From: Nitrospinaceae bacterium
GTDB lineage: Bacteria; Nitrospinota; Nitrospinia; Nitrospinales; Nitrospinaceae
Assembly (NCBI GenBank): GCA_965237905.1
Contig: OZ250172.1
Span: 2,368,001-2,432,000 of the forward strand
Direction of reading: 5' to 3'
Length of the DNA stretch: 64,000 nt
The notes beneath the pieces are model-generated. The model ran no database searches and was not told where the DNA came from. It saw nothing but the letters and a program-made list of their open reading frames with translations. The translations under genes and the position numbers were made by a program. Below are positions 3 to 36,222 of this stretch, in pieces (the stretch's first letter is position 1; the number at the start of each line of letters is the position of its first letter).

Positions 3-880
3 AACTACTCAGCCTACACGACGAATGTCTCCATCAATCTCAATGCCAATACGGCAACGGGAGTGACCGGAACGGCAGCCAATATCGTCAACGTGATCGG
101 CGGCACGGGTAACGACACGTTGACGGGTGCCGACAGTGCGAACACCTGGAACGTTACGGGACTGAACTCCGGTAGCGTGGGCGGCACAAGTTTCAGTGGT
201 ATCGAGAATCTCGCCGGTGGTATCGATGCCGACAGTTTCACGTTCGCCGCCCTGAGTTCGGTGGACTCCGTAGCGGGTGGCGGTGGCAGTGACACCCTCG
301 ATCTGTCCTCCGATACAGCAGGTGTGACAGTTGATCTGAGTCTCGGCACGGCGAGTTATGCGGGTACGATCTCTGATATCGAAAATGTGGTGACCGGTGC
401 GGGTAACGATACCATCATCGGTGCGTTGAGCGCGGTGTTGTTGGATACGGGTGCCGGCACGGATACGCTCGACTTCTCGAATGTTGCTTCCAGTTTAAAT
501 ATCACAGTGCATGCGGATGGTACGACCAGCGTAACCGACGGCGTGGATACCGTCAACGGTATCAGTGGTGCCGAGAACATCATCGGCGGTACCGGTACCA
601 ATACCTATACCTTCGAGAATGGGGCATCGCTTGCCGGTAACATCACCGGTGGCAGTAATGTTCTGAGCTACGCGGCGTACACGACGAGTGTTTCAGTTGA
701 TCTGGGTAACAACACGGCGACAGGCACAACGGGTGCATCGAGCGTCGTCAACGTGATCGGCGGCACAGGTTCAGATACGCTGAGGGGTCCTGCGCCCAAT
801 TCCACGTGGACCATAGACGGTCCCAATTCGGGAGAGGTGGCAGGAGTTACCTTCAGCGGTATTGAGAATCTGACCGGCGC
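3..880 (+). repeat. ~660-bp-period repeat unit at the window edge
   Basis: TCGTCAACGTGATCGGCGGCAC occurs at 85-106 and 745-766. The protein motif YxAYTTxVSxxLxxNTATG...VNVIGGTGxDTL...FSGIENLxG recurs with the same spacing. Confidence 0.8.
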
Positions 881-15800: not shown

Positions 15801-18800
15801 ACCGCCGACACGATCACGGTGGCCAACCCCTGGATTGAGCCGCTGGATGTAACCAGCCGGATCGAGATTCTCCGCTATGCCGGTGTGGTCCTGCCGGCTA
15901 CGTTGGTGGAGATTGTCGGTGACGATGGTAAAGAAATTGATCTGCGCGAGACCGGTGGAGAAACCTTTGCGCTCGAAGCACCGGAGATTCACGGCTTTGT
16001 CGATGGAGACTTTGATTTCCTCGATGATGACAACACGCTGGGACTGGTGGACACGATTACCGTATCCCTGACCAGCGCGCCGACTAGCGATGTCACGGTG
16101 ACTTTCGATTCGGACGATGCGTTCGATAATACGCAACTTTTCTTCGCGGTTGAGACGGCGGGCGGTCAGTTCCAGCTTATTGATGAAATAACGGGTCTCG
16201 TTTTTGACGATAACGACCTTGCAGCTAACTCCTGGAAAAACCAGCAGACCGTCTACGTTTTTGGCACAGACGACACTCTGACGGAAGGTTTCCATAAGGG
16301 TGTGCTGACCTTGACCGCCACCGGTGGCGGCTATAACGCGACCTCCTCCATCGTCGTTGATATCGGTGACAACGAGGTGGCGGGCGTGATGGTTATTGAA
16401 AACGATAACTCCACTGACGTCGTTGAAATCGATCCGCTTGCCTTCCCCATCGGGCTCGAGAGTCAAACTCAAAGCGGCAATGTATTTACGGGTAACGTTC
16501 TGACATTCGATTTTAATGTGAGTGGCTTGGCACCCGTGGGAGATGGGGTGCTCACGGTTTCGGGCATCGCCGATTTAGACCTCAGTTCTGAATTTCTCAC
16601 GCTTGATGCCGAAGGCATCATTGTACAAAATCTGTTCGTGACGGGTGGGTCGCAAGGTGGGTCGGTGACGACCGACGTCAATTTGACAAAAGAACAGCTT
16701 GAGACTCTGGGCGCCGACGGCACGATCACCTTTACCGTTACACCGTCTGCGGCTGTGGGTAGCTTCATCACCGATAACGAACTGACATTGGATTTGACGT
16801 ACCCCACCGGTGTCTTTACCGAAAATCAACCTCAAAGCGGCAATGTATTTACGGGTAACACTCTGACCTTCGATTTTAATGTGAGTGGGGTGACGCCTCA
16901 AGGCGATGGGGTGCTCGCGGTTTCAGCCATTGCCGACTTAAACTTCTTTACTGAATTTCTCACGCTCGATGCCGAAGGCATTGTTGTTCAGAATCTGTTT
17001 GTCTCGGGCGGGTCGCAAGGTGGTCTGTCGACGACCGAGGTCAGTTTTACCAAGGCGCAACTCGAGACTCTGGCGGCCGATGGCGTAATCACCTTTACCG
17101 TTACACCGTCGGCGGCTGTGGGTAGCTTTATTAGCAATAACAAATTGACATTGGATTTGACGTTCGGCACCGATGAGGTGTTCTCGAATTTTCCGACCAG
17201 TGATTCGTACCAGTTGGTGTTGACCAAGGCGCCAGAGATCGGGGAGACCGTGGAGGTTAACCTGTCCGCGGATCTGACCCGTACCCAGCGTGGTGCCGGG
17301 CTCCTGGGTATCCGGGCGTTCGAGCAGGAAGTCGTGCTGTCGAGCGATTCCCTGACTTTCGACACGAGCAACTGGTTCCTGCCGCAGGCGGTCACGGTCA
17401 CAGCGTTGGATGACGACCGGGTGGACGGCAGTGATTCCAAGTCCTTCCCGACCCTGCTCGATCAGGCCAACAGCATCGAAGGTCCGCTCGAGATCACCGG
17501 CGGGCTCTCCGCAGACCGCTCCGCAGACCTCGAGCGCGAACCGGTGGTTCTGCCCGGCGAAACCAACTTCAAACCCTCTATCGGGACCGTGCAGGCAACT
17601 CCGCCGGGTGAAGATCCATCTTTTACCCTGACCATAGATCTGGATGAGATCATCGACGGCGCAACCATTATCGATACCCTGGTGAACGGTGGCACGGACG
17701 GTGTCACCAGAGTGACGACTAACACCAATGGCGATACCTTGGTGCAAGAAGTTCAGATTCTCACTATCGACGCAGTCAGCGGTAAATTCAAACTATCGCT
17801 CGACGGTGGAACGAACAAGACGGTCGACATCAACTACGATCCCTCCGATCTGGAAGCCGTCGCAACCGCTATCAAGAACGCCCTCCAGCCTCTTCCGGGA
17901 TTCGAGATTGTCGATGTGACCGCTTCAGGGACCTCTTTTGTCATCACCTTCCTTGCTGGGGCCGATCATCCGCTCCTCGAGGTTTTCGATCCAGTTACTC
18001 CGATCGGCGATTTCGAAACAGGTACCTTTAGCGGTTGGGATACCACGGGTACAACCAGCATCGAGACGGCAGCCTTTGGCAGCGGCCCAACGGAGGGAAC
18101 CTTCCAGGCCCTGCTCTCGACCTTCAATGACACCACCAATCCCACAACTAGTGATACCGACCTCGAGACGTTCCTGGGACTGGCGGCGGGCAGCTTGGAC
18201 GGCTTAAACACTGGCGACGCCACCGAAGGTTCGGCCATCCGCCGCACGGTGACGGTACAGGCCGGGGACGAGCTTAGCTTTGATTGGAACTTCTTGACCG
18301 ACGAGTTTACACCGGGCTCCCTTTCTTTCAACGATTTTGCTTTTGTGTCGATTGCGGGCACTGCCTCCGAACTGGCGGACACGAATAGTTTTTTCTTGGG
18401 GTCTCTGACTGTCGACTTTAACGAAGAGACCGGTTTCGATACGTTCACGCATACGTTTGCCACGGCAGGTACTTTCACCATCGGGGTGGGGGTGATCGAC
18501 GTGGATGACACAGGTGTCGATTCCGGCCTCCTGGTGGACAATTTCAAGTTGGTGAGCACGGCAGAGTTTTTAACTCGCGTGGGCACTGAAGTCGATTTCG
18601 ATCCATCGAATCATACTGAACAGGTGCTGACGGTTCACGGCAATGGAGGTAGCTTCAAGTTGAAGGTGGGCGCCAACCCCGCAACCGCTGATATCAATTT
18701 TTCACCGGATAACCCCTCGGTCATTCAAGCTCAGGTAATTGAGAACGCGCTCAATGCCGTTTTGGTCGGAAACACCGCCGACGTATCCGGTTCCGGATCG

Positions 18801-20069: not shown

Positions 20070-23000
20070 TGAAGAACTGGGCACCAAGGACGTATTGGTC
20101 ACGCGGGGCGGCAATGTTTACCGCATTACTTTTACGGATGAAATGGGCAACCAGGATGTCGCACTGCTCGACATCGACGATTTTGCGGATCCCAACGACC
20201 TGGCTCATCTTGGCCTCACCATGGAGAGCGGGGCCGTAGGCGATGTGTTGAATATCAACAACAGCGCAGACGACACGGACACGGTTGCGATCCTGACCGA
20301 TACCTCGTTGACCGGGCTTGGCATGGGCGATATCGGTATTGAGGAAACCACCTTCAACGAGATTCAGACGCTTCGCCTCGATGCCACCGGCGGCACTTTC
20401 CGCTTGAGCTACACCAATGAGGATCTCGATACGTTCGAGACTGCCAATCTGAACTTCGATATTTCTGCGGCGGCTTTGCAGGCGGAACTGGAAACGGTGC
20501 TGGCGACTGCCTTGAGCCTCACACCCGAAGAGCCCATTGATAACATCCGTGTCGTCCAGAATGACGATGTCTACGTGTTCTACTTCCGTGGACTGTTGTC
20601 CAACGCGGATGTCGCTCCCATTGAGGTTGTTGAATTGGCCAATAACCTGACGCGTATCGAGGAGCTTCCGGGAGGAGACTTAACAACAGTAGTGCCTGGC
20701 GACCTTTTCACCACCACCCGCCTCGATGGTATTACAGCGGCCGCTCAAAACGAAATCCAGCAGTTACTCATAACGGCAACGGGCGGCACCTTTACGCTCG
20801 CCTTCCCGGATAATACGGATCCGGACGACATTACTGTGGAATTGCCTTTCGACGTAACTCGCGCGCAACTCCAGCTCGCACTCGAGGCGCTACCGGCCAT
20901 TGTTCCGGGTGATGTCATCATCAGCGAAATTACGGGTGGATTCAATATCGAGTTTGTCAGCGAGCTGTCCTCGCAAAACGTGCCGGAAATGATCGTCGAC
21001 AACCTTACCGATGGCACGGTGACGGTTAACGAGATACAAGCGGGGCTCGACACCGGGCTGAATAACGTCCAGGTAGTGACCGTCAACGCCTCGCAAGGTT
21101 TCTTCCAACTTCAGTTGTATGTCCCGTTGGTTCAGAAGACCCTGCTTACCGAACAGTTGGCTCATGATGCGAGTGCTGAGCAGGTGCGGAGAGCCCTGCA
21201 ACAGGAGTTGGCACGGGAACTCAACGGTATCGCGGAGGGTGCTGACCTGAGCCGCACCCGTGAAGCCTTCAAGTCTGATTTCTCCGTTGCACGGATCGAC
21301 AACGTCTACATCATCGGCTTCCAGGGCGTGACCCGTCAGATCGACGGTGGAGAGGGCGTCAGTCTCTTGAACGTGATCGGTGATGATGAGTTCAACGACA
21401 GCGGCTCTGCCGAGGTGCGCACGCGAATGGACGGCATCAACTACTACGGCATCGAGCAAATCAATCTCAATATGGGTAGTGGTACCGACATTCTGAACGT
21501 ACAGGGCACCAGCCCGGGCAGTTTCAAGCTGGATCGCGATAATACCGTACACGCCGCAACCAATATCACCCTCGCCGTCGGTAACGACCAGATCTTTATC
21601 TCCTCGAATGCCGATCTCGATCACGCCAACATAAACGATGGCGACGTGTTTGAATTCCTGACCGGGCATCTGGACGATGTGTTGGGCAACTTGAATCTCG
21701 ATGTCGGTACCGGGACTCACCGTTTGCTGATCAGTGATGAAGCGGCCACCGTGGGTGACGCCAACATCACGATTTCAGACATCATCACGACGCCAACGGG
21801 TGGGGATACATTTGATGATACTTCGGCCGCCGAGATCCAGGTCAAGGGACTTGCCTATGGCGATATCACCTACGGAGCGGACGCCAGTGCCAATTTTTAC
21901 GATGGCATCATTTACTGGACGGGTTCCGGAGACGATACCATTTTCATCGACGGTACTCATGTGCGGGATGAAGCGGTAGAACGCACCACCACACTGCTCA
22001 ATACCGGACTGGGTGATGACCATGTCACGGTCGACCTCGATGTCCTCGATGAATTCGATGAGCCCGAAGACGGCTTCTTTGTACTGCATACCATGGGCGC
22101 CAAGGTAGCACACACGCCTGTGGATCCAACTCTCAGTGACGGGATTGACGATCCCAGCGACGATGACACAGTCCGGGCATCTGAATCCACGTTGCCGCTG
22201 ATCATTTTCGGCGGCCTCGGCAATGATGACATCATCGCCGGTCAGAACGAGGACATCGTTTTTGGTGACTTTGGCCGCGTGCAGTACCTCAATAGCATCG
22301 GCGAACTGATCGCGGTATTCGGCTTCGGCGCCCGCGATGACGTGATTAGCAGTCAGGTGATCGATCCGACCTGGGTCATTTCTCGCGACTTGAACCTCGG
22401 TGGTGTGGATATTATCGAAGGCGGCGAGGACGACGACATCCTCATCGGCGGCGCCGGGGGGAACAGCATCGGCGACTATATCGACGGCGATGAAGGCGAT
22501 GACCTGATCTTTGGTGATGCCGTTCGACTGGAACGCAGGGACACGGATGTCACGGTGGTTGGCGGAGAACCCGGCAGTATCACTAATCCACGCTTCCAGA
22601 CACTGGAAGGGCAGGTGATTTACACCCGTAACGATATTCCCGCATTCCTGCAGGGACTCACCCCGGCAGAGTTTGGTGAACTGAACGGCAGTAACGTCGG
22701 CGAGGTGTTGGTCGATGGCGTATCACGTGATATTCGCCACCAGGACGGCACACTGGTAGCCGCTTGGAACGAATACGAGATCGTTGAACTGTACCACAGC
22801 TTTGACATCGAGGCGGGGATGGTACCCGGGCTTGAGGACAGCTTCGGCGACGATTACATCGCGGGTGGCGCAGACCACGACGTGATCTTCGGTCAGCTCG
22901 GCGACGATGTGATTCAGGGTGACGGTAGTATTGAGAGCGCGGTAGGTGCGGAGACCCTCGCAGATAACCGGGTTGCCGCGGCACAGGCCGGACTCAATCC

Positions 23001-26000
23001 AGTAGGCGCACGGCGTGTTGATGCCGGCACGAGCATTCTGCCGCCGGAGCTTGTCGGTTTGGTTAACCAAATCCTCGATATAACCGCCTCCTTCGAGACG
23101 GCAGAAGACGGCGACGACTACATCGAAGGTAACGGCGGAAACGATACGGTCTTCGGTAACCTTGGGCAGGACGACATCATCGGCGGCAGTTCCAGTCTGT
23201 TCACTTTGAATGACAGTTCACTCAGGCCCGATGGCGACGGAGCGGATTTCCTCTTCGGCGGGTCGGGCGAGCGCATCGATCGTAATCACGATATCACCGA
23301 TACGAACAAAGACACAATCGTTCTGGATGATGTGCATGCTCGTGATTCGGATGTCATCGCCGGCGACAACGCCAATATTTACAGGATTGTGGGCACTGGC
23401 GACATCACACCGCCCGGTGAAGCTACAATTCCAGGCACGGGAGATACCGGCGGGTTCCTCGATTTTAATTATGATGCGGTGCGCGAAGCGCAACGGATCA
23501 TCGTTCGCGCGGTGGAACTGCTCGACTACACCCTCGGCGGACCGGATTTCGATATGGCGAGTGCGGCCACAGATATTGGCGCGGGCGATGAGATCCATGG
23601 TGGATCCGGCGACGACTTCATCTACGGCATGGTCGGCTCGGATGTCCTGTTCGGTGACAGCGAAGATGACGACATCATTGGTGGCTGGGGCTTAGAATGG
23701 ATTTCCGGCGGCACGGGTGACGATGGCGTGTTGGGCGATGGCGGCCGGATTTATACGAGCAGAAACAGTACTATTTTCGGGGAGTCGCTTTTCGGGATTG
23801 CTGCCTTGAGTGCCGTGGATGTTGAGATCGACACGCCGGGCAATATTCAGGAGGCGATCATCAATGTGAATGGCCAACTTAAAAAGACGGTCGACCTCAC
23901 GCCATTTAACGTTGACCCGAGTAGTTTGCAGGATGCCTTGTTCAATCCGATGTATGCCGACGATATCATTTATGGCGGTCTGGGTGGTGACTTCCTGCAC
24001 GGTGGTGCGGGAGACGACGCGATTTCCGGTGCCGAGGCGCTTCCCATTTCTGCGGCAGTAGTGTACCCGGACAACGACATGACCGATAATGCACGCACCG
24101 ACGGCGTGGTGATCACCCTCGGTTATGACACTCCATTCAATTCCGGAAATATTCTGGGCGCCGATGCGCTCAGGGCGGAAGAGTTTGCCGCTTACGATGA
24201 ATTCAATCCACGGACTAAGATTCTGGTAAATGTGGATGGCGATCTTCTGGATTACTTCCTCAACTTTGATGAAACCGAGGGTCCGGTAGCTCCAGGCAGC
24301 CCGAGCAAGTTTACGGATGGCGATGACCGGATCTTTGGCGATCTCGGCAACGACTGGCTGGTGGGCGGTACGGGTCGAGACACATCGTACGGTGGGCGTG
24401 GCAACGATCTGATGAACGCCGATGACGACCACAATACCGCCAGTGGGTTGAATGATGTTCCCGATGGCCCTGAGTACAGTTACGAAGATCGGGCTTTTGG
24501 TGGCGCTGGCCGGGATGTGCTCATCGCCAATACCGGTGGCGATCGCCTGATCGACTGGGTTGGGGAATTCAACAGTTTCCTCGTACCCTTTGCACCTTTT
24601 GGCCCGCCGACCGTTAGTAGAGCTCCGCAGCCACAAATGGCGGAATTTCTGTATGATCTTTCCGAGAGCGACGGCGCGGATCCAACACGCGCGGCGGATA
24701 CCGGTAATGCGGTTAATCGCAACGGCGAGCCGGACGGGGAACTGGGTGTGGTCCTGCAAAAAGATGATGACTGGGGTGATCAGACCGGTGGGCCGGCTGA
24801 TCCGCAAGCAGGCAATATTCCGGGCGGCAAGCGGGATATTCGGGGAGGTGCCGATTTTAATTCGGGTACTGCGAGCAGCTTTTTCGCTGATAGTGGCACT
24901 TGGACGGTGAGTGGCGGGCGTTTTGAAGTAGCGCCTGAAATCCTGGGAGCGGATGCGGTCAGCGTTTATATGGTCAACGAGTATCTGCCCAACTATTTTG
25001 AGCTCAAGGCCACCATCAATGCCGGCAAACCCACAGCCGGATTGAAATCGAATGCGTATCTGATTTTTGATTACCAGAGCGAGACCGATTTCAAATACGC
25101 CGGGGTCAATATTTCCAACGACAAAATGGAAATGGGATACCGTGATGCCACCGGTTGGCACGAGTTGGTGCAAACCTCTGCGAAGCTCAGACCGAACACG
25201 GATTATGAACTGCTTCTGGCTCTGAATGGTACCGCTGTCACACTGGTGGTGGATAACCAGGATGTCTTCAATTACGTTTATGCACCTCGCGTCGATGCGG
25301 ACGGGTTCAGCTATGGATTGAACGCCGGCATGGTGGGTATCGGTGCTCTCAATTCAGTGGCGCGTATTGATAATGTCAAGGTGCAGGTCCTGCCGCCGGA
25401 GATCACGTTTGAGGACACTGATGATTTTACCACTGCGGCGACGCTGCTCACCGGGGCGACTACGGGTGATTGGCAGGTCGTTAATAATCGTTATCAGGTG
25501 GATGCGACATCTATCGAGTTAGCCCAAAGCCTGGCCGGGTTGACGGTGGACGGGTCGAGTTTGATCCGGCTGGAAGGTGTGTTGAACACCGATGGTATTG
25601 CGGGATATGTGTTCGACCGTTACAGCGCCACCGATTTTAAATTTGCTGCGATTTCGGCAACGGATGATCAGGCTATCATCGGTCACTATGCGAGACAGGG
25701 ATGGGTCATCGATACGGCCGCCAACTGGGTGATCAACGACAATCAGGATTACGACGTTGATGTGACCGTCAAAGGTTCCACGGTGAGTGTCCTGGTGAAC
25801 GGCCAAACCGTGGTCAGTCATGCCTTCAACGCAGTTGCAGTGGACGGCGAGTTTGGCCTTTTGGCCAAAGACGGAATAGCAAGTTTCGATACGGTGACTT
25901 TCGGTACCGACGATCCGGCATTTGGCGGAGTAGGAGAAGCAGCTCTACTGGCGGCGCAGTCGGCGGGTGAGTCGGTGGCGACGTCGACCTTGACGCACGG

Positions 26001-26763
26001 TCAGCTGGAGAAGATATTCGACGCGGCGGTTACCCGGTGGACCGGAGTTGGGTATATCGATCAGGCCCGGTTGGCGACTTTGGATGATCTGGAATTCTAC
26101 ATTGCCGATATGGTCGGATTGGCCCTGGGCCGATCTTCCGGCAACCGGATCTTTATCGATCCCAACGCGGCGGGTCACGGCTGGTTTGTCGATGAGACAC
26201 CGGATGCCAATGAGGAGTTCCTATTAAGCAGTAACGGTTGGGTGGCGAAGCCCAATAGCGCGGCTTATGGCAAGATGGACCTGCTGACAGCGGTCAGCCA
26301 TGAGATAGGCCATTATCTGGGACTGGATCACGACGATGCCACTTCTGATACCTCGGTGATGAGCGATACCCTGCAGTCGGGTTCCCGGTATGTGGGAGAA
26401 GAGTCCAGCTACCGGCATATGGGAGAAGATACCCTTCTGAGCAGTGCATTCTTTGCGGCAGGTTCAGCCTTCCTGGAAGAGACGTTGGGCTTGACGGGCG
26501 AGTCGGAGGACGAGGAGGATGGCTCAGAGGAGACTCTGGCGCTGGTCTTTGACGAGGAATCCGGTGAGTTCAGCGAATCCGAAGCCACCAGTGATGATGA
26601 TGAATGGTACATCGATAATGGCGATGTGGAGCCGGATGAGGATGTATACGCCCTATTGGATCTGGAGGATGAGGATTTCACCCAGCTGGCCGGCTTGAGC
26701 CTGAATGACACTAACGGCCAGAGTGATTCCAGAATCAATTGGAATGGTCAATTTACGGGATAA
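19981..26763 (+). CDS. Giant surface protein, C-terminal segment (+1 frame continuation; real coding from ~20044): RTX repeats, two ConA-like domains, zinc metalloprotease motif, acidic tail
   Basis: The first ~20 residues (MRPRRRVSK...) look non-coding. From LMAVDDPDDEELGTKDVLVTRGGNVYRITF the sequence completes the module begun in the upstream ORF. It contains many GGxGxD repeats and HEIGHYLGLDH at 26299-26331. Confidence 0.9.
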   Translation: MRPRRRVSKTPYSSSSIWLLGLMAVDDPDDEELGTKDVLVTRGGNVYRITFTDEMGNQDVALLDIDDFADPNDLAHLGLTMESGAVGDVLNINNSADDTDTVAILTDTSLTGLGMGDIGIEETTFNEIQTLRLDATGGTFRLSYTNEDLDTFETANLNFDISAAALQAELETVLATALSLTPEEPIDNIRVVQNDDVYVFYFRGLLSNADVAPIEVVELANNLTRIEELPGGDLTTVVPGDLFTTTRLDGITAAAQNEIQQLLITATGGTFTLAFPDNTDPDDITVELPFDVTRAQLQLALEALPAIVPGDVIISEITGGFNIEFVSELSSQNVPEMIVDNLTDGTVTVNEIQAGLDTGLNNVQVVTVNASQGFFQLQLYVPLVQKTLLTEQLAHDASAEQVRRALQQELARELNGIAEGADLSRTREAFKSDFSVARIDNVYIIGFQGVTRQIDGGEGVSLLNVIGDDEFNDSGSAEVRTRMDGINYYGIEQINLNMGSGTDILNVQGTSPGSFKLDRDNTVHAATNITLAVGNDQIFISSNADLDHANINDGDVFEFLTGHLDDVLGNLNLDVGTGTHRLLISDEAATVGDANITISDIITTPTGGDTFDDTSAAEIQVKGLAYGDITYGADASANFYDGIIYWTGSGDDTIFIDGTHVRDEAVERTTTLLNTGLGDDHVTVDLDVLDEFDEPEDGFFVLHTMGAKVAHTPVDPTLSDGIDDPSDDDTVRASESTLPLIIFGGLGNDDIIAGQNEDIVFGDFGRVQYLNSIGELIAVFGFGARDDVISSQVIDPTWVISRDLNLGGVDIIEGGEDDDILIGGAGGNSIGDYIDGDEGDDLIFGDAVRLERRDTDVTVVGGEPGSITNPRFQTLEGQVIYTRNDIPAFLQGLTPAEFGELNGSNVGEVLVDGVSRDIRHQDGTLVAAWNEYEIVELYHSFDIEAGMVPGLEDSFGDDYIAGGADHDVIFGQLGDDVIQGDGSIESAVGAETLADNRVAAAQAGLNPVGARRVDAGTSILPPELVGLVNQILDITASFETAEDGDDYIEGNGGNDTVFGNLGQDDIIGGSSSLFTLNDSSLRPDGDGADFLFGGSGERIDRNHDITDTNKDTIVLDDVHARDSDVIAGDNANIYRIVGTGDITPPGEATIPGTGDTGGFLDFNYDAVREAQRIIVRAVELLDYTLGGPDFDMASAATDIGAGDEIHGGSGDDFIYGMVGSDVLFGDSEDDDIIGGWGLEWISGGTGDDGVLGDGGRIYTSRNSTIFGESLFGIAALSAVDVEIDTPGNIQEAIINVNGQLKKTVDLTPFNVDPSSLQDALFNPMYADDIIYGGLGGDFLHGGAGDDAISGAEALPISAAVVYPDNDMTDNARTDGVVITLGYDTPFNSGNILGADALRAEEFAAYDEFNPRTKILVNVDGDLLDYFLNFDETEGPVAPGSPSKFTDGDDRIFGDLGNDWLVGGTGRDTSYGGRGNDLMNADDDHNTASGLNDVPDGPEYSYEDRAFGGAGRDVLIANTGGDRLIDWVGEFNSFLVPFAPFGPPTVSRAPQPQMAEFLYDLSESDGADPTRAADTGNAVNRNGEPDGELGVVLQKDDDWGDQTGGPADPQAGNIPGGKRDIRGGADFNSGTASSFFADSGTWTVSGGRFEVAPEILGADAVSVYMVNEYLPNYFELKATINAGKPTAGLKSNAYLIFDYQSETDFKYAGVNISNDKMEMGYRDATGWHELVQTSAKLRPNTDYELLLALNGTAVTLVVDNQDVFNYVYAPRVDADGFSYGLNAGMVGIGALNSVARIDNVKVQVLPPEITFEDTDDFTTAATLLTGATTGDWQVVNNRYQVDATSIELAQSLAGLTVDGSSLIRLEGVLNTDGIAGYVFDRYSATDFKFAAISATDDQAIIGHYARQGWVIDTAANWVINDNQDYDVDVTVKGSTVSVLVNGQTVVSHAFNAVAVDGEFGLLAKDGIASFDTVTFGTDDPAFGGVGEAALLAAQSAGESVATSTLTHGQLEKIFDAAVTRWTGVGYIDQARLATLDDLEFYIADMVGLALGRSSGNRIFIDPNAAGHGWFVDETPDANEEFLLSSNGWVAKPNSAAYGKMDLLTAVSHEIGHYLGLDHDDATSDTSVMSDTLQSGSRYVGEESSYRHMGEDTLLSSAFFAAGSAFLEETLGLTGESEDEEDGSEETLALVFDEESGEFSESEATSDDDEWYIDNGDVEPDEDVYALLDLEDEDFTQLAGLSLNDTNGQSDSRINWNGQFTG

Positions 26764-27117: not shown

Positions 27118-27477
27118 ATGGCAGAGCAAAAAGCTCAGGCAGTAGCCGAGCAAAAAGAAAAGAGTGAATCGGGGAAAGCAAATACCACGTCGAACGAATT
27201 TTTAAATTCGCTGACACTTAAGTGGGATGATTCGAAGATGCAGACCACTTACGCTAACGTGGTGAATGCGTCGAGCACCCGGGAAGAGGTTTCAATTTTC
27301 TTCGGAACCAACCAATCCTGGAACATCTCTGAAGATCGCGAATTGGCCATTCAGTTGAGCGACCGTATGGTGCTCAACCCTTATGCCGCGAAACGTCTGC
27401 TGGTGTTGTTATCCCGGATTGTCAAAGAATATGAAAACCGTTTTGGGACTTTAAAATTGGACGGGGACACCAAGTAA
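27118..27477 (+). CDS. DUF3467-family small protein
   Basis: Motifs WDDSKMQTTYANVVNASSTREEVSIFFG and RMVLNPYAAKRL...YENRFG match my recollection of DUF3467. GGGAG ribosome-binding site upstream. Confidence 0.8.
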   Translation: MAEQKAQAVAEQKEKSESGKANTTSNEFLNSLTLKWDDSKMQTTYANVVNASSTREEVSIFFGTNQSWNISEDRELAIQLSDRMVLNPYAAKRLLVLLSRIVKEYENRFGTLKLDGDTK

Positions 27478-27529
27478 ATTGAACCGTCGAAACCATCTTT
27501 TAAAAAAAAGGTGGGACATCGATTTCGTC

Positions 27530-27558
27530 ATCCCCGCCCTTGGGCGGGGATTTTTTTT
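27530..27558 (+). terminator. Rho-independent terminator after the DUF3467 gene
   Basis: ATCCCCGCCC-TT-GGGCGGGGAT inverted repeat followed by a T-run. Confidence 0.85.
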
Positions 27559-27596
27559 ATAAAGAGGATATTTGATCAGTCCATAAGGTTTACGTT

Positions 27597-29477
27597 ATGA
27601 AGTCAAAATTTACATCGGGAGAAAAACCCGAAAAGAGCAACGGCCTAAATGATTCCCAGTTATGGAAGGAATTTTCCAACGCCAAAACTTCCAGCGAGTT
27701 TGCCCATCATTGGTTGAGTCTGCAATGCCGTTACCTTCCCGGAGTGCTTCGTGGAGTCGTTGTGCTGGGAGATCCCAAGACTGATTCTTATGCGCCTGCC
27801 GCTTTTTGGCCACAGAACTCCAATGGAAATCTAAATTTAACCCGTGTTGCTGATTTTGCGATTGAGCAAAAAAAAGGTGTGCTGCATGAAGGGGGTTCCA
27901 AGAATGGGAAAAATAATCGAAAAGGGGAAAAGAATTCATTTATGGCCTATCCCTTTTTAATCGACGAAAGCTTGTACGGAGTGGTTGCGGTAGAGGCCCA
28001 TACCTCCGATGAGAAGGAAACTCAACAAGCCATGCGGCAGTTGCAGTGGGGGACTTCCTGGATGGAAGTGATGATTCGCAGGCAGTTTAACCAAAACACG
28101 TTGCCTGACCGAAAACGCCTGAGCACGGTTCTCGAATTAATCGCCAGCGGCTTGGAAAATGAACAATTTAAAAAAGCTGCCAACGCAGTGGTCACTGATA
28201 TGGCTGTTCAACTGGATTGCGAGCGCGTCAGCCTGGGGTTTGTCAAAGGGAAATTCGTAAAGGTTGCCGCGTTATCCCACAGCGCCAAATTCAGCAAAAA
28301 GTCGAACTTGATTCGGGATATAGGCCATGTCATGGATGAGGCGATCGATCAAAAGTCCATGATTATTTTTCCTCCCATGGATGAGCAGACTCCATTAATC
28401 CATCGGTTGCATGCCGACTTAAACGACAAAAATGGGGGCGGAGGGGTTTGTACGGTACCGTTGAGTTCGGGAGATAAAGTGTTTGGCGCGTTGACTTTTG
28501 AAAAAACCAAAAAAAAGCAATTTAGCGAACAGGATGTGCATCTCTGTGAAACCGCCGCCCACATGGTGGGTCCCATTTTACATATTAAGCGCAAAGAGGA
28601 TCGATGGATATTGACCAAGGTGTTAATCTCCCTAAAGAATTTTTTAGGAAAACTGGTGGGACCCCGGCATTTGGGTTGTAAGATGGGATTCATCATTTTG
28701 ACGGCCCTGGTAGTTTTCTTTTATTATGCGATGTGGGATTTTCGAATTGCGGCAGACACCAAAATTGAAGGGGCCGTCCAGCGAGTCGTGGTGGCCCCGG
28801 TGGAAGGATATATCCAGAATACGTTTGTGAGACCGGGGGACGTTGTAAAAAAAGGTGACTTGATTTGTGAACTTGAGGATAAAGACCTGATTGTGGAAAG
28901 AGTTAAATGGGAAAGCCAGATCAATCAGTATCAAGGACAGTACCGGGATGCGTTGGCTAAATACAACCGAAGTGAAATAAAAATTTTGAAGGCTCAATTG
29001 AAACAGGCGGAAGCCAAACTGGAATTAATCCAGAAGCAATTGAACCGAACCCACATTTACTCCCCCTTCGACGGGATTATCGTTTCGGGAGATTTGAGCC
29101 AATCCCTGGGTGCGCCGGTGGAACGGGGCGAAGTGTTATATCAATTGGCCCCGCTGGATGAGTACCGGGTAGTTCTGGAAGTGGATGAAAAGGATATTGC
29201 GGAAATCCAAACCATGATGCGCGGAGAGTTGGTATTGACGGGGGCGGTCAAGGAAAACCTCCCCTTTATAGTGAAAAAAATCACCCCGGTCTCGGAAAAC
29301 CGGGAGGGAAGCAATTTCTTCAGAGTGGAAGCCCAGTTACTGGAACATCGAGATTATCTGCGGCCAGGCATGGAGGGAGTAGGTAAAATCAATGTCGGTG
29401 AGCGTAAATTAATCTGGATTTTAACCCGTGAAATGATTAACTGGTTCCGATTAAAAATCTGGACTTGGTGGCCTTAA
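27597..29477 (+). CDS. GAF-domain + HlyD/efflux membrane-fusion (periplasmic adaptor) protein
   Basis: N-terminal GAF-like regions (CTVPLSSGDKVFGALTFE), one TM segment, lipoyl-like halves (VAPVEGYI...VRPGDVVKKGDLI and IYSPFDGIIVSGDL) flanking a coiled hairpin, and C-terminal LRPGMEGVGKI. Confidence 0.88.
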   Translation: MKSKFTSGEKPEKSNGLNDSQLWKEFSNAKTSSEFAHHWLSLQCRYLPGVLRGVVVLGDPKTDSYAPAAFWPQNSNGNLNLTRVADFAIEQKKGVLHEGGSKNGKNNRKGEKNSFMAYPFLIDESLYGVVAVEAHTSDEKETQQAMRQLQWGTSWMEVMIRRQFNQNTLPDRKRLSTVLELIASGLENEQFKKAANAVVTDMAVQLDCERVSLGFVKGKFVKVAALSHSAKFSKKSNLIRDIGHVMDEAIDQKSMIIFPPMDEQTPLIHRLHADLNDKNGGGGVCTVPLSSGDKVFGALTFEKTKKKQFSEQDVHLCETAAHMVGPILHIKRKEDRWILTKVLISLKNFLGKLVGPRHLGCKMGFIILTALVVFFYYAMWDFRIAADTKIEGAVQRVVVAPVEGYIQNTFVRPGDVVKKGDLICELEDKDLIVERVKWESQINQYQGQYRDALAKYNRSEIKILKAQLKQAEAKLELIQKQLNRTHIYSPFDGIIVSGDLSQSLGAPVERGEVLYQLAPLDEYRVVLEVDEKDIAEIQTMMRGELVLTGAVKENLPFIVKKITPVSENREGSNFFRVEAQLLEHRDYLRPGMEGVGKINVGERKLIWILTREMINWFRLKIWTWWP

Positions 29478-29492
29478 TCGAAAGGGTGATTT

Positions 29493-31643
29493 ATGTCTGT
29501 TGATGCGATGTTCAGCCCTTCCTGGTACCGGGTCGCAAATCTACAACCCCGCCTACGCAGTCATACCCAAATTCACCGTCACCATTACCGTGGAAAAATA
29601 TGGTTTGTTCTTCAGGACCACTCGAGCGGAAGTTATCACCGGTTCAGTCCTCCTGTTTATTATATTATCTCGCAGATGGACGGCACGCGAACGTTTCAGG
29701 AGATCTGGGATCGCGCTGTTGAGCATTTGGGCGACGATGCCCCCACCCAAGATCAGATGATACGGTTAGCGGGCCAGCTTCATTCAAACGATACCCTGTT
29801 GTGTGATGTGCCGCCGGATACGTTCGAGTTGTTTCAGCGTCATGAGTCTCATCAGAAAATGAAATGGAAGCAGTGGTTCCTGAACCCACTTTCCTTGCGC
29901 TTCCCCTTCTTCGATCCGGAACGCCTGCTGAATCAAATGTTGCCTTGGGTTCGACCATTTTTCGGTTGGTTCGGAATTTTTATATGGTGCGCAGTCGTAG
30001 GATACGCTTTGTACCTTTCCGGATTGCACTGGGATGGTTTGACGAAAAATGTGAGCGATCGGATTCTTACTCCGGAAAACCTGCTACTGCTTTGGCTCGT
30101 GTACCCCTTGGTAAAGTTGGTGCACGAATTTGGACACGCCTTTGCTGTTAAAAACTGGGGTGGGGAAGTCCATGAAATTGGAATCATGCTTCTCGTGTTC
30201 ATTCCGGTTCCTTATGTGGAGGCGTCCAGTGCCTCCGCATTCCGGGAAAAACATCGGCGCATGATGGTGGATGCCGCTGGGATTGTAGTGGAGTTGTTGT
30301 TGGCGGCAATCGCTTTAGTAGTTTGGGTTAATGTGGAGCACGGGATTGTTCATGCCATTGCCTATAATGTGATTTTAATTGGCAGTGTGTCCACTCTTTT
30401 TTTCAACGGCAACCCTCTATTACGGTTTGACGGTTATTATTTTCTTGCCGACGCTATTGAAGTACCCAACCTTGGCTCCCGCTCAAATAATTATCTCGGG
30501 TATTTGATTCAGCGGTATGGTTTTGGAGTCCGGAACGCCAAATCTCCGGCAAATACATCTGGGGAACGTTTTTGGATGTTCTCTTATGGAATATCCTCCT
30601 TTTTCTACAGGATGTTTATTGTTGCGGTGATTGCTCTGGTCGTTGCTGAAAAATTCTTTATTGTCGGAATCCTATTAGCCAGCTGGGCGTTGACCACCAT
30701 GATCGGGGTGCCTCTTTATAAAAGACTTAAATTCCTATTTTCAAGTCCCTTGATTAGCGGGAATCGAGCTCGGGCAATAGTGCTCACCACAAGTTTTGTT
30801 GTATCGTTGCTGGGTTTTATATTTTTTGCGCCTTTTCCCTATGCAACTCGGGCGGAAGGAGTGATTTGGCCGCCGGAACATTCCCTGATACGGGCTGAAA
30901 CTGATGGATTTTGTCGAGAAATTCTTGTGAAGTCCAACCAATGGGTTCAACAGGGAGATACCATCATGATCAGCGAGGACCCCTTGTTGGATGCCGAAAA
31001 ACGCATTCTGGAAGCGCGCCTGCAAGAATTGGAAGCGCGCTATCTATCTTTGCGTTACACGGAACGAACCAAAGCGCTGATTCAAAAAGAGGAAATGGTT
31101 ACTGTTAAAAAGCAATTAGACCGCATCCAAGAGTTGGAAAGCCGGTTGACTATTCGTAGCCAGGCTAAAGGAAAACTGATTCTTCCCCGGTTGGAAGATA
31201 TGAAGGGCCGCTTTCTCCATAAGGGAGAATTGATAGGGTATGTGGTCGATTTTCCCTTGAATACAGCTCGAGTGGTAGTACCTCAGGATAATATCGGTTT
31301 GGTAAGGGAACAAACGGTCAAAATACAGATTCGCTTGGCAGAAAGTATCGGAAAAGTTTCTGAAGCGATGGTTTTGCGGGAGGTTCCCGCGGCTACAGTG
31401 AAATTGCCGAGTGTGGCCTTGGGTTTTGCGGGAGGCGGCGAGGTCCCCGTTGATCCGCGGGATGAAGAAGGGACTAAAGCCTTTGACTCGTTTTTTCAGT
31501 TGGATTTGACTTTATCCGACCAGAAAAATATACGATATATTGGAGAGCGGGTTTTTGTGCGTTTCGATCATGGCAGGGTTCCCTTGGCGGAACAGTGGTA
31601 CTACTTCTTTCGACAACTGTTTTTAAGAAAGTTCAGTGTTTAA
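29493..31643 (+). CDS. PqqD-like N-domain / site-2 (M50) zinc metalloprotease / HlyD-like adaptor fusion
   Basis: HEFGH (HExxH) in a TM helix, NGNPLLRFDGYY (M50 NPxxxxDG motif) and multiple TM segments. C-terminal lipoyl/hairpin adaptor. N-terminal MDGTRTFQEIW...QL winged-helix pattern. Confidence 0.88.
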   Translation: MSVDAMFSPSWYRVANLQPRLRSHTQIHRHHYRGKIWFVLQDHSSGSYHRFSPPVYYIISQMDGTRTFQEIWDRAVEHLGDDAPTQDQMIRLAGQLHSNDTLLCDVPPDTFELFQRHESHQKMKWKQWFLNPLSLRFPFFDPERLLNQMLPWVRPFFGWFGIFIWCAVVGYALYLSGLHWDGLTKNVSDRILTPENLLLLWLVYPLVKLVHEFGHAFAVKNWGGEVHEIGIMLLVFIPVPYVEASSASAFREKHRRMMVDAAGIVVELLLAAIALVVWVNVEHGIVHAIAYNVILIGSVSTLFFNGNPLLRFDGYYFLADAIEVPNLGSRSNNYLGYLIQRYGFGVRNAKSPANTSGERFWMFSYGISSFFYRMFIVAVIALVVAEKFFIVGILLASWALTTMIGVPLYKRLKFLFSSPLISGNRARAIVLTTSFVVSLLGFIFFAPFPYATRAEGVIWPPEHSLIRAETDGFCREILVKSNQWVQQGDTIMISEDPLLDAEKRILEARLQELEARYLSLRYTERTKALIQKEEMVTVKKQLDRIQELESRLTIRSQAKGKLILPRLEDMKGRFLHKGELIGYVVDFPLNTARVVVPQDNIGLVREQTVKIQIRLAESIGKVSEAMVLREVPAATVKLPSVALGFAGGGEVPVDPRDEEGTKAFDSFFQLDLTLSDQKNIRYIGERVFVRFDHGRVPLAEQWYYFFRQLFLRKFSV

Positions 31644-33635
31644 ATGTTTATCGCTGAGTGGGAGCGTCCCAGAACCAATTTGGAGCTTTACCCGGAAAAA
31701 AAGTGGGAAGAGCCTAATTTGCTGGAACGAATTTTTTTAAAGGGTAGCCGGTATTTCCGGAAAGGGCCTTCCCTCTCACAGATGTATGAGTTTGCCCACA
31801 GGGTGGAGAGGGCGGGGAAGGAATTCCAACACATTTCTGAAAAGCAGATTGCTCTATGTTCAAAAAAAATACGGACTGACCTTCATAAAAATGGATTCAA
31901 ACCACAGTCCGTAGTCCAAAGTTTTGCTCTGATTCGCGAAGTTTCCCGTCGAACTCTTGGAATCCAGCATTACCCTGTACAGATCATTGGCGGCTACGTC
32001 ATGCTGAATGGTATGATTGCCGAAATGGAAACCGGAGAGGGCAAAACCCTGACAGCAACTCTTCCCGCCTGTACTGCAGCCCTGGCCGGGATTCCCGTTC
32101 ATCTTATTACGGTCAATGATTATCTGGTGCAACGCGATGCGGAGTGGATGGGACCGGTTTACCGAGCCCTTGGGTTGAAAGTGGGAACCATTTTGGAGGG
32201 CATGGATTTGCCAACCCGCAATGAAAGTTATAATGCGGATATTACTTATTGCACCAACAAACAGCTCACTTTTGATTACCTGAAAGACCGTTTGGTTTTT
32301 GGCAACAAACGCGGCCATCTCCGGATGAGTATTGACCGATTGAATGACGATGCTTCGAGTATGAGTAAACTTCTTCTAAGAGGTCTTCATTTCGGAATTG
32401 TCGATGAAGCGGACAGCGTTTTGATTGACGAAGCTCGAACCCCTCTGATTATTTCAAAGACTACCGACAACAATATATCCGATCAGATGTGTCACCAAGC
32501 CCTTCAATTATCCCAAGAAATGATTTTTGGGAGCGACTTTTTAATTTTGGAGCGAGACCGTAAAATCGAGTTCACCCCAAACGGCCAAAACCACGTGTTG
32601 CAAATGGCGAAGGATCTTGGGGGATTATGGAAAGGACAATCACGTAGTTTAGAACTGGTGAGCCAGGCTTTAAGCGCCCGCCATTTGTTTATAAAGGACA
32701 AGCATTATCTTATCCAGGACGAGAAGATTGTAATCATTGATGAGTTCACCGGGCGGGCCATGCCGGACCGGTCTTGGGAACGGGGTCTGCACCAAATGAT
32801 TGAGGCAAAAGAAGACGTTCCCGTTACCGGCCTGAGAGAGACTCTGGCTAAAATCAGCTATCAGCAATTTTTTCGAAGATATCTGCGTTTGGCAGGTATG
32901 ACAGGGACTGCGGATGAAGCATCGAAGGAGTTGGAATCTGTCTACCATCTGAAGGTAATGAAAATACCCACCAATCGCAAAGCTCAACGGGTTTTTCTTT
33001 CCACGCGATCTTTTTCAAAAGCTGCGGACAAATGGGCGGCCATTGCTTCCCGAGTCGAACACATTCATGCCTTAAAGCGCCCGATTTTAATTGGAACCCG
33101 ATCCGTTTCGGATTCCGAGCTGATCAGTTCTTTATTGTCTGAAAAAAAAATTCCGCACCAAACTTTGAATGCAAGACAGGATACGGACGAAGCGAAAGTC
33201 GTCGAGCAGGCCGGGCAGGCGGAGCGCATCACTGTAGCAACCAATATGGCCGGGCGGGGAACCGATATCAAGTTGGCCCCAGGAATCGCCAAGCTGGGAG
33301 GTCTTCACGTCATCGCCAGCGAGCCTCATGAAGCCGGGCGGATTGACCGTCAATTGTTCGGCCGTTGTGGCAGGCAAGGCGATCCGGGAAGCTATGAGTT
33401 GTTTTTTTCTTTGGAAGATGAATTGGTGCAGAGCCATGGTCCTATTATAGCCCTGATGCGTTTGCTTCGTGTCTTCAGGATTAACAGGAATACGGGAAGT
33501 TCCTGGGTCGATAGGATGATTTTATACTGGACTCAAAGATTTGCCGAACGCCATCACGCGAGGATTCGGAAACAATTACTGAAAATGGATCAACAAGTTA
33601 ATAAGATGTTGGCTTTTTCAGGTCAATCGGAGTGA
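31644..33635 (+). CDS. secA: Secondary, C-terminally truncated SecA-like DEAD ATPase
   Basis: AEMETGEGKT (Walker A), TVNDYLVQRD, FDYLKD, IVDEADSVLIDEARTPLIIS, IDEFTGR, GLHQMIEAKE, ATNMAGRGTDI and RIDRQLFGRCGRQGDPG are all present. It is only 663 aa and ends shortly after RKQLLKMD. Confidence 0.93.
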   Translation: MFIAEWERPRTNLELYPEKKWEEPNLLERIFLKGSRYFRKGPSLSQMYEFAHRVERAGKEFQHISEKQIALCSKKIRTDLHKNGFKPQSVVQSFALIREVSRRTLGIQHYPVQIIGGYVMLNGMIAEMETGEGKTLTATLPACTAALAGIPVHLITVNDYLVQRDAEWMGPVYRALGLKVGTILEGMDLPTRNESYNADITYCTNKQLTFDYLKDRLVFGNKRGHLRMSIDRLNDDASSMSKLLLRGLHFGIVDEADSVLIDEARTPLIISKTTDNNISDQMCHQALQLSQEMIFGSDFLILERDRKIEFTPNGQNHVLQMAKDLGGLWKGQSRSLELVSQALSARHLFIKDKHYLIQDEKIVIIDEFTGRAMPDRSWERGLHQMIEAKEDVPVTGLRETLAKISYQQFFRRYLRLAGMTGTADEASKELESVYHLKVMKIPTNRKAQRVFLSTRSFSKAADKWAAIASRVEHIHALKRPILIGTRSVSDSELISSLLSEKKIPHQTLNARQDTDEAKVVEQAGQAERITVATNMAGRGTDIKLAPGIAKLGGLHVIASEPHEAGRIDRQLFGRCGRQGDPGSYELFFSLEDELVQSHGPIIALMRLLRVFRINRNTGSSWVDRMILYWTQRFAERHHARIRKQLLKMDQQVNKMLAFSGQSE

Positions 33636-33639
33636 ATAT

Positions 33640-34467
33640 ATGATTCGAATTCTTTTGTATTCGGTGAGTTTTGTATTTCTTTTTTTATGTTTTGCAGTTC
33701 CTGCGTTTACGGCAAAGAAAGATGATCTGGATTGCGTGATCGAGCCCTATATGACGGTCGAGCTCAGCAGTTCCGTGCAGGGCGTTTTGGAAGAAGTTTT
33801 GGTCAAGCGGGGAGACTCTGTTAAAAAAGGCCAGGTGCTGGCGCGGTTAAAATCCGGTGTTGAGCAGGCGGGTGTTAATCTGGCCAAGGCGCGGGCGGAA
33901 AGTATGACGGAAATTAAGGTTAACAGCGAAAAATATGAATTGAGTAAGCGTACTCTAAAGCGCGTCAGAGAGTTATATCAGAAAAAACTTGTTCCCTCGA
34001 ATGAGTATGATGAAGCGTCAACTTCTGTAGTCGTGGGAGAGCTGGAAGTTTTATTGGCTACAGAAGGCCATCATATCGCACAGTTGGAATTAAAGCGCGC
34101 TGAAGAGATTTTAAAATTGAGAAATATTGTCAGCCCTATAGACGGTGTGGTGGTCGAGCGCTATAAATCGCCCGGGGAATTTGTGGAGGATCAACCTTTA
34201 TTGAAGCTGGCGCGGGTGGATCCTTTATATGTTGAAGTTATTGTTCCCTTATATTGGTTAGGGAGGATCAAAAATGGAATGGCTGTCCAAGTGTATCCTG
34301 AAAAACCTGTGGGAGGATCTTATACAGCCAAAGTTGTCATTGTCGATCCTGTAGTCGATTCGGCAAGCGGAACCTTTGGGGTCCGTCTGGAACTTCCGAA
34401 CGACAACTACAGGATACCCGCAGGGTTGACCTGCGATGTTAAATTTCCTCGAAACCGAAGAAAATAA
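33640..34467 (+). CDS. RND/HlyD-type periplasmic membrane-fusion protein
   Basis: N-terminal signal or TM segment, VELSSSVQGVLEEVLVKRGDSVKKGQVLA, IVSPIDGVV and VDPVVDSASGTFGVRLELPN. Confidence 0.9.
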   Translation: MIRILLYSVSFVFLFLCFAVPAFTAKKDDLDCVIEPYMTVELSSSVQGVLEEVLVKRGDSVKKGQVLARLKSGVEQAGVNLAKARAESMTEIKVNSEKYELSKRTLKRVRELYQKKLVPSNEYDEASTSVVVGELEVLLATEGHHIAQLELKRAEEILKLRNIVSPIDGVVVERYKSPGEFVEDQPLLKLARVDPLYVEVIVPLYWLGRIKNGMAVQVYPEKPVGGSYTAKVVIVDPVVDSASGTFGVRLELPNDNYRIPAGLTCDVKFPRNRRK

Positions 34468-34515
34468 AACGGTTGTAAGTTTCGCCGCCTTTTATGGGCG
34501 GTCATTCATTATCCT

Positions 34516-36156: not shown

Positions 36157-36222
36157 TCGTCTAATGAGAAAAAGAGACCCGATGTTGTTAAGGAGAGGGG
36201 GGATACGATTTCCGGTAGAATC

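Follow-up and report, generated by a model that had tools for sequence, protein, structure and literature searches.

A four-gene core carried by a 64,000-nt stretch of DNA from a Nitrospinaceae bacterium (assembly GCA_965237905.1, contig OZ250172.1, positions 2,368,001-2,432,000, forward strand; the whole stretch is called the window here) probably represents a dedicated exporter of two giant LEPR-XLL proteins, which would operate independently of an ATP-binding cassette (ABC) transporter, recognise its cargo by an N-terminal tag, and thread it N-terminus first towards a shared TolC. The core comprises an adaptor of the membrane fusion protein (MFP) type with a GAF domain, a fusion of a ribosomally synthesised and post-translationally modified peptide (RiPP) recognition element (RRE) with a site-2 protease (M50) and a second MFP, a short SecA-family ATPase, and a small periplasmic adaptor. 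By its gene content, the window locus is a further member of a gene set published by Kamneva, Poudel and Ward in 2015, for which SecA was proposed as the ATPase and the M50 protein as the pore, with no ABC protein (PMC4452313). An earlier note on this DNA had pointed to that paper, which makes the same SecA-motor and M50-pore inference, so the idea is not new (PMC4452313). To a kind of system known from comparative genomics alone, the locus adds a leader hypothesis and an uncluttered genomic setting.

Gene content and the search for type I exporters

Five co-directional open reading frames (ORFs) were confirmed on the + strand between 27118 and 34467, separated within the core by the gaps that the earlier note had given: 15 bp between the GAF-MFP and M50 genes, 0 between the M50 and SecA genes, and 4 bp between the SecA gene and that of the third MFP. 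Their products hold the Pfam domains DUF3467 (E 6e-20); GAF and HlyD_3; Peptidase_M50 and HlyD_3; SecA_DEAD, PP_bind, and P-loop_SecA; and HlyD_D23, respectively. The features of the locus are the following:

3..20069, + strand: 5' ORF of the giant LEPR-XLL cargo gene (8,026 aa in full; starts at genome position 2,363,989)
19981..26763, + strand: 3' ORF of the giant cargo gene (2,260 aa; RTX repeats, laminin-G-like region, metzincin-type motif, acidic tail)
20019..20076, + strand: frameshift dividing the giant gene, intact in relatives G021 and G022
27118..27477, + strand: DUF3467 protein (119 aa, no membrane segment)
27530..27559, + strand: GC-rich terminator-like hairpin with T-tail, between the DUF3467 gene and the four-gene core (hairpin scan)
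27597..29477, + strand: membrane-anchored GAF-MFP adaptor (from its domains; one transmembrane helix, 361-379)
29493..31643, + strand: RRE, site-2 protease M50, and MFP fusion (716 aa)
31644..33635, + strand: short SecA-family ATPase (663 aa)
33640..34467, + strand: small periplasmic adaptor (MFP; 275 aa, N-terminal hydrophobic signal)
34484..34502, + strand: hairpin 3' of the last adaptor gene, ahead of a convergent TetR gene (hairpin scan)

The genome is a single contig, 96.3% complete, and encodes the M50 fusion, the GAF-MFP, and the short SecA once each, together with two LEPR-XLL giants. None of the 17 window proteins scanned matches an ABC, RND, or TolC family, in agreement with the earlier note, and all genome-wide OEP and ABC_membrane matches fall outside the window. 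The scores of this genome against the models of type I ABC transporters stay below the cut-offs (TIGR01846 for HlyB, 431 vs 726 bits; TIGR01842 for PrtD, 258 vs 510; TIGR03375 for LssB, 342 vs 693), as does the best match to the HlyD model TIGR01843 (45 bits vs a cut-off of 209), the MFP fold itself being present. The six ABC_membrane genes obtain their best scores as MsbA/SmdA-like proteins.

Similarly, the HlyB and HlyD models found nothing above cut-off in five of five relatives (G020-G023 and G025). Among the related loci, which are the best 80 of 318 stretches and comprise close relatives with flanks of up to 10 kb, ABC ATPases of mixed types occur in seven; L037 is the only one of the 80 with a PrtD-type ABC and a HlyD, 4.6 kb past the module, and the others hold ABC-F, importer, or MacB-type proteins. 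On the 5' side of the giant, where few loci reach that far, no ABC gene was found in this genome or in G020-G022. The independence from ABC transporters put forward by the earlier note is therefore supported, both by the lack of a type I ABC or HlyD above cut-off in the genome and by a PrtD-type ABC in a single related locus; in addition, the distant-type cassettes read hold no ABC gene.

Co-occurrence with tagged giants and a sister subtype

Wherever a related locus includes 2.5 kb or more of upstream sequence (62 of 62), the M50 gene lies directly 5' of the short SecA gene, and a GAF-MFP gene lies upstream in all 57 with 4.5 kb or more, an order that argues against chance linkage. Where both flanks are available (38 loci), a small MFP is found in 29, a TolC adjoining the module in 16, and DUF3467 in 7.

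The giants are marked by an N-terminal tag (consensus LExLEPRxLLS), for which the LEPR-XLL model NF012209 gives two matches in this genome, both of them giants, at 31.4 bits vs a cut-off of 17. Across the phylum (92 genomes), a close M50 orthologue is present in six genomes and the tag in five, with an overlap of four; the fifth tagged genome is G023. Relatives G020-G022 show the order DUF3467, giant, GAF-MFP, M50, SecA, and MFP, two of their giants being intact (6,044 and 6,027 aa), while G024 and G025 hold the module with no tag match, on contigs that end at the module. In G023 (L104:13140-14382), a single deletion of ~24 kb took the giant body and three module genes, leaving DUF3467, half an adaptor, and a tag stub of 262 aa that runs straight into what is left of this last adaptor. 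A divergent module was also seen in L106, within a planctomycete-looking gene set of a genome (G033) filed under the phylum of the Nitrospinaceae; it may result from contamination or transfer, and was left out of the close-type counts.

In a sample of 49 module-bearing genomes, obtained from 50 of 63 candidate loci, 32 carry the tag, and in seven the module directly adjoins a tagged reading frame that extends without a break over 10,600-25,900 aa. An order-level sample was also evaluated, consisting of 221 evenly sampled genomes of the order Burkholderiales, whose kin are not independent. Here, the tag is present in 23 of the 28 genomes with a close-type M50 gene, in just one of the 13 with the distant type only, and in one of the 180 with none (a 23-aa frame), and an RRE-M50-adaptor gene is present in 24 of the 25 LEPR-XLL-positive genomes. 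Three of these genomes (G124, G169, and G220) have a single M50 gene each, along with four or five tags. This co-occurrence, together with the giants that abut the module, supports the link between module and giant that the earlier note had drawn.

The same sample reveals a sister subtype. A second SecA_DEAD gene adjoins the M50 gene in 28/28 close-type genomes, whereas the distant-type loci, of which six were read, hold in four cases a giant, a TolC, a small MFP, a shorter GAF-MFP, and the RRE-M50-MFP fusion, with no ATPase. As for the other two, one contains M50 and the adaptors, and the ABC ATPase found 5 kb from them looks unrelated; one is cut by a contig end. Two distant-type giants with visible starts carry LEPRxxFDGA. 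From these gene contents, the constant core is the protease-adaptor, the second adaptor, the small adaptor, TolC, and the tagged giant, the short SecA being a subtype-specific rather than a defining component, and the label "SecA-powered" would fit a single subtype.

Tagged giants and the parts of the module

The window giant is one gene of ~10,250 codons that starts 4,011 bp upstream of the window and is broken by a frameshift, since its two ORFs align to successive parts (residues 4140-4414 and 4419-4654) of an intact 6,044-aa relative. The earlier note had placed a protein of more than 8,900 aa upstream of the module, which holds for the presence of a giant but not for its size and form, as the window contains two ORFs of that single gene. 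The second giant (G000:C1:959919-1003325; L082 and L090), of ~14,180 codons, is divided into three ORFs by two frameshifts and has its own DUF3467 gene upstream. The two giants are identical over their first 2,650 bp, and their identity amounts to 93% across 4.7 kb and to 98% across the final 821 bp, whereas their middles differ; such shared ends suggest a duplication with swapped middles or a gene conversion. The contig depth is doubled across their common start, indicating two real copies. The three frameshifts are also found, with no gaps, in contigs of the same sample, which are not independent of the assembly. Ordinary genes appear split too, such as an MsbA-like ABC gene (G000:C1:2759777-2761533, break at 2,760,118) and a probable condensing enzyme gene (35478-36523), so that, judging from the reading frames, the assembly or the strain holds other frameshifts.

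The 5' ORF of the window giant holds the tag as LETLEPRVLL near residue 52, and 12 dispersed RTX-type nonapeptides. Both giants are cysteine-free and acidic, with scattered RTX-type nonapeptides and an N-terminus devoid of hydrophobic stretches; the leader of the giant reaches a 19-residue hydropathy maximum of 0.99 within residues 1-120. Its RTX repeats are dispersed from residue 205 onwards instead of being clustered ahead of a C-terminal signal. The N-terminal tag is conserved across phyla, while the C-termini of module-neighbouring giants are dissimilar. The tag, in combination with the predicted RRE fold of the M50 protein, points to an N-terminal leader rather than a C-terminal RTX signal. 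Two further observations concern these proteins. A metzincin-type motif, HEIGHYLGLDH (HExxHxxGxxH), occurs near the C-terminus of both giants (window 26200-26350), and is missing from the giants of G021 and G022. In addition, G021 encodes a 710-aa LEPR-XLL protein with no further domain, distant from the module (L105:8958-11090), which is a possible small cargo in trans.

The protease-adaptor fusion is predicted to consist of an RRE (~10-106), an M50 domain with HEFGH at 211-215 and NGNPLLRFDG at 305-314, and an MFP (447-700). Its structure was predicted from 143 sequences with a predicted local distance difference test score (pLDDT) of 93.8. In this model, residues 19-105 match the RRE of TbiB1 with its leader peptide (Z 10.2, root-mean-square deviation 2.8, 83 aligned residues); the matches to 5V1U (Z 10.2), 6JX3 (Z 9.9), and 5SXY (Z 8.9) extend across most of the domain, and PqqD (Z 8.9) is among the leader-binding RREs that residues 10-106 match. 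The N-terminal domain is predicted to adopt the RRE leader-binding fold, in line with the PqqD-like domain that had been noticed before. Residues 189-324 resemble RseP (Z 9.5), residues 449-694 resemble MexA (Z 13.8), and EmrA (Z 13.5) is a further match of the MFP region (447-700). The zinc-ligand motifs HExxH and NxxPxxxxD are invariant in the 143 sequences. The top NCBIfam match of the fusion is the daptide RRE-protease NF041824 (daptide_HExxH; E 9e-42, 143.5 bits vs a cut-off of 300), and no daptide genes were found at the window locus.

A complex predicted between residues 1-345 of this protein, with zinc, and a 40-aa tag peptide scored 0.50 vs 0.00 for the best control, with runs agreeing in at least 84% of contacts and a partner pLDDT of at least 52. 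The mark that it passed is also passed by 116 of 157 solved pairs and 2 of 215 mismatched pairs, although at scores of 0.60 or below it is passed by only 18 of the 157 solved pairs and by both of these mismatches. As solved RRE-leader complexes exist, the prediction may reflect likeness to them, and it lends weak support to the binding of the tag to the RRE-M50 region.

The short SecA retains the Walker A lysine (K134), the DEAD box (254-257), and the clamp domain, and shows no SecA_SW match; its ATPase site is intact, as is the protease site of the fusion. It stops in the first scaffold helix, at ~residue 603 of the Bacillus SecA chain, and has no wing, two-helix finger, or C-terminal tail. 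The wing and the two-helix finger are the parts of SecA that drive SecY. Among 77 short SecAs, Walker A is kept in 75 and DEAD in 76, and 473-543 residues follow the P-loop vs 752 in the canonical copy. The window protein is 46-87% identical to module SecAs vs 40% to its own canonical SecA, an 855-aa protein (above cut-off) encoded elsewhere in the genome, as is a canonical SecY. The short SecA scores below every SecA2 family cut-off, and neither SecY2 nor accessory genes were found at the locus. The genome also holds a divergent second SecY-family gene (G000:C1:1696410-1697894, L162; 494 aa, 85 bits) with an extra C-terminal domain, 24% identical to the housekeeping SecY and found in one of 49 genomes of the phylum searched. 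This gene was rejected as a module part, being unlinked and not found in the module-bearing G020-G022 and G025.

With regard to the adaptors, the GAF-MFP holds one clear GAF domain, a transmembrane helix (361-379), a periplasmic MFP, and, judging from its sequence, likely a second GAF-like domain at the N-terminus. The GAF-MFPs of the SecA-bearing type are longer and likely share this second domain (55 proteins, 584-703 aa, self-match E 3e-4), with L159 as an exception. The hairpin tip of the small adaptor reads R-x3-L-x6-P in the window and R-x3-L-x6-S in most relatives (36 of 54 small-adaptor rows, some of them duplicates); the latter is what we take to be the TolC-docking motif. The small adaptors of L050, L052, and L078 bear a C-terminal extension of ~230 aa, with no Pfam match in the one copy scanned. 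The best match in the genome to the profile of module-linked TolCs is a 581-aa TolC of a MacAB-type operon (E 2e-33), which is no close orthologue.

The second DUF3467 copy, 84% identical to the first, lies directly 5' of the second giant, where the rest of the module is missing. Since each giant stands beside its own DUF3467, this protein seems to travel with the cargo, and a single module would serve two cargoes. DUF3467 is likely a cargo-linked chaperone. Its fold gave no clue: the single-sequence model has a pLDDT of 47, Atlas matches are unnamed and below 0.9, and the best hit of the profile search of solved structures has an E of 0.6. DUF3467 also occurs without the module in seven genomes from distant families of the phylum, and the six loci read (L110-L115) show a conserved context of unrelated metabolic genes, indicating that the family is not module-specific and has other roles.

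The GC-rich hairpin with its T-tail that follows the DUF3467 gene at 27530-27551, and recurs 3' of the second DUF3467 copy, makes a simple five-gene operon improbable. The hairpin at 34484..34502 is likely the end of the transcription unit. Over the whole scan, terminator-like sites are no more numerous than in shuffled sequence. The promoter scan showed no excess over shuffled sequence either. Further along the window (45537-48215) lies a gene for a CheA-like kinase whose Hpt and dimerisation domains are separated by a bacterial globin domain, possibly an oxygen-sensing chemosensory kinase.

Proposed route, alternatives, and known systems

On the observed gene content, motifs, and co-occurrence, the predicted RRE fold, and the weakly supported binding, we infer the remaining steps of the route, namely leader cleavage, the channel, the direction of export, the use of TolC, and the motor role of SecA. 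The basic, non-hydrophobic leader, with (F/L)ExLEPRxLL, would bind the RRE at the cytoplasmic face, and the site-2 protease would clip it, as the RRE-fused daptide peptidase MpaP does. The short SecA, reduced to motor and clamp and without its SecY-driving parts, would then pass the unfolded polypeptide, starting at its N-terminus, into a channel that the M50 and GAF adaptors build from their membrane portions. The adaptors would span the periplasm, with the small one docking a TolC that an efflux operon supplies; the most plausible candidate is the 581-aa protein of the MacAB-type operon. Calcium-driven folding outside the cell may help to pull the chain, and DUF3467 would act as the cargo chaperone.

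Several observations weigh against this exporter. The canonical HlyD is encoded elsewhere in 37 of the 49 module-bearing genomes, so that in most species export may instead follow an ordinary type I route. The tag is not always detected either: 17 of these 49 metagenome-assembled genomes have no NF012209 match, at least three of them holding a tag variant that the model misses, and it was not found in 5 of the 28 close-type Burkholderiales genomes. All 13 distant-type-only genomes hold a single, housekeeping SecA; this SecA-less subtype implies that a motor role for the short SecA is not general, and the replacement of the ABC motor by SecA, as claimed in the earlier note, would hold at most for one subtype. 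No TolC was found at the window locus or at those of G020-G022; each of the three full TolC-family genes in this genome belongs to an efflux operon and shares only 21-30% identity with the TolCs linked to modules, and the small adaptors of Nitrospinaceae have P or A in place of the tip serine. Both giants are frameshifted in the assembly, and the strain may not produce full-length cargo. Moreover, a site-2 protease is not known to act as a protein channel. Finally, the giants of axenic Chlorobium are reported in the periplasm, which fits equally a two-step route (bioRxiv 10.64898/2026.03.19.712371).

In such a two-step route, the main alternative, the RRE-M50 protein would bind and clip the leader, the short SecA (in the sister subtype, the housekeeping SecA) would drive the chain through the housekeeping SecYEG, and the adaptors and TolC would then pass it through the outer membrane or retain it in the periplasm. 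This would suit an ATPase that is a SecA with a clamp domain in a genome with canonical SecA and SecY, the need of the SecA-less subtype for some motor in trans, the periplasmic giants reported for Chlorobium without its partner (bioRxiv 10.64898/2026.03.19.712371), and the accessory SecA2-only systems, which operate with SecYEG according to Kamneva et al. (PMC4452313). However, the short SecA has lost precisely the parts that drive SecY, the leader of the giant offers no hydrophobic stretch to a Sec pathway (the 0.99 maximum given above), and the second SecY-like gene is not found in the four module-bearing relatives tested, which makes this route unlikely. That the module merely matures or anchors the giant, with energy and pore provided by an ABC protein encoded elsewhere (type I, MacB, or MsbA-like), is more doubtful still. 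Such a view could draw on the canonical HlyDs of the module-bearing genomes, the PrtD and HlyD of L037, the RTX-type nonapeptides, and the MacAB-type operon of the best TolC candidate, but it conflicts with the own genome and the relatives searched, where no type I components exceed the cut-offs, with the few and mixed ABC ATPases of the related loci, and with RTX repeats that are dispersed rather than C-terminal.

Site-2 proteases and GAF domains are known as signalling parts, and the module could be conceived as a trans-envelope signalling device where GAF senses and the protease frees a regulator or the N-terminus of the giant, with no bulk export. A regulatory role for the GAF protein was indeed suggested by Kamneva et al. 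(PMC4452313). Nevertheless, the three MFP domains, the TolC seen at many loci, and the polypeptide clamp of the ATPase speak against it, and no sigma factor or regulator recurs among the neighbours, whose commonest unlabelled clusters are tails of giant proteins, so that we consider this improbable. Least probable of all appears an exporter of small, daptide-like ribosomal peptides with the giant as a chance neighbour: the RRE and the site-2 protease are RiPP parts and daptide_HExxH is the top NCBIfam match, but the tag and the M50 fusion co-occur across genomes, and no tailoring enzymes recur in the 80 loci (ORFs of at least 90 aa).

For the export of bacterial proteins of 10,000-36,000 residues without Sec and type I signals, this locus provides a clean case, as the tagged giants and the module occur, with no canonical type I system, in a genome that is nearly complete and in relatives whose genomes are complete. 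Beyond the dedicated ABC-independent exporter proposed above, we suggest only tentatively that the module may constitute a distinct secretion system, in which a RiPP-style RRE and a site-2 protease would act as the receptor and the channel of the inner membrane, the motor would be a stripped SecA, and MFPs and TolC would form the conduit; it would thread the largest proteins of bacteria, among them the Chlorochromatium symbiosis proteins of 36,800 residues, N-terminus first, with LEPR-XLL as a cleavable signal serving several cargoes in trans. If true, LEPR-XLL would be an export signal, the site-2 protease would gain a role in translocation, and SecA would be used without SecY.

Among known systems, the locus of Kamneva et al. 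is the nearest: the window holds a second SecA without SecA_SW beside the canonical SecA, with M50-HlyD, GAF-HlyD, and a small HlyD adjacent and no ABC, just as described there, where an OEP is sometimes present (PMC4452313). In contrast, no SapC-like neighbour was seen in the window, and the accessible part of that study, based on comparative genomics alone, mentions neither a cargo or leader nor an RRE or a subtype without SecA, and includes no Nitrospinaceae (PMC4452313). The locus is tabulated there for Methylorubrum extorquens AM1 (META1p2399-2402) and Ruegeria pomeroyi (SPO2714-2718), and for Chlorobium chlorochromatii CaD3 the supplements give a second SecA along with cluster 2, cluster 3, and SapC homologues (PMC4452313). 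The LEPRxLL giants of C. chlorochromatii are made and transferred to the partner cell, and are said to lack known signals (bioRxiv 10.64898/2026.03.19.712371). These proteins, Cag_663 and Cag_665, resemble the window giants in their N-terminal LEPRxLL and belong to a genome with horizontally acquired secA, tolC, sapC, and hlyD; unlike here, the route proposed for them is of type I, Sap-like, and C-terminus first, and M50 goes unmentioned in the main text as accessed (bioRxiv 10.64898/2026.03.19.712371). We infer that the secondary SecA of 2015 and these giants are linked. No mechanism for the LEPR-XLL leader was found in the literature searched, which largely excludes subscription journals. 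Two papers were discarded in this respect, as their accessible parts deal with a canonical type I system (ArtA of Achromobacter, PMC9430717) and with a DUF4347 of Azospirillum without export data (PMC13723633).

By its domain architecture, MpaP (NF041824) is the closest characterised counterpart of the M50 fusion: this daptide leader peptidase shares the RRE, the M50 domain, and HExxH, and its acidic leader motif ELExMEAP resembles LExLEPR (bioRxiv 10.1101/2023.03.08.531785). The window protein differs in its extra C-terminal MFP and in a likely substrate of 6,000-25,000 residues instead of a short peptide. Gram-positive accessory SecA2 systems likewise pair a second SecA with a giant surface protein made of repeats; however, the window SecA has lost the wing and most of the scaffold, has no SecY2 at its locus, and is coupled to MFPs and TolC. 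Type I systems (HlyB-HlyD-TolC, PrtDEF, and LapBCE) share with the module the MFP adaptors, the TolC of many relatives, and a large cargo that is acidic, contains no cysteine, bears RTX-type calcium repeats, and lacks a Sec signal. The module departs from them in having no ABC, three different adaptors, one of them fused to a protease, a SecA-family ATPase, and an N-terminal tag instead of a C-terminal signal. Judged by its gene content, it is not a type I system by membership, although its outer half would work like one.

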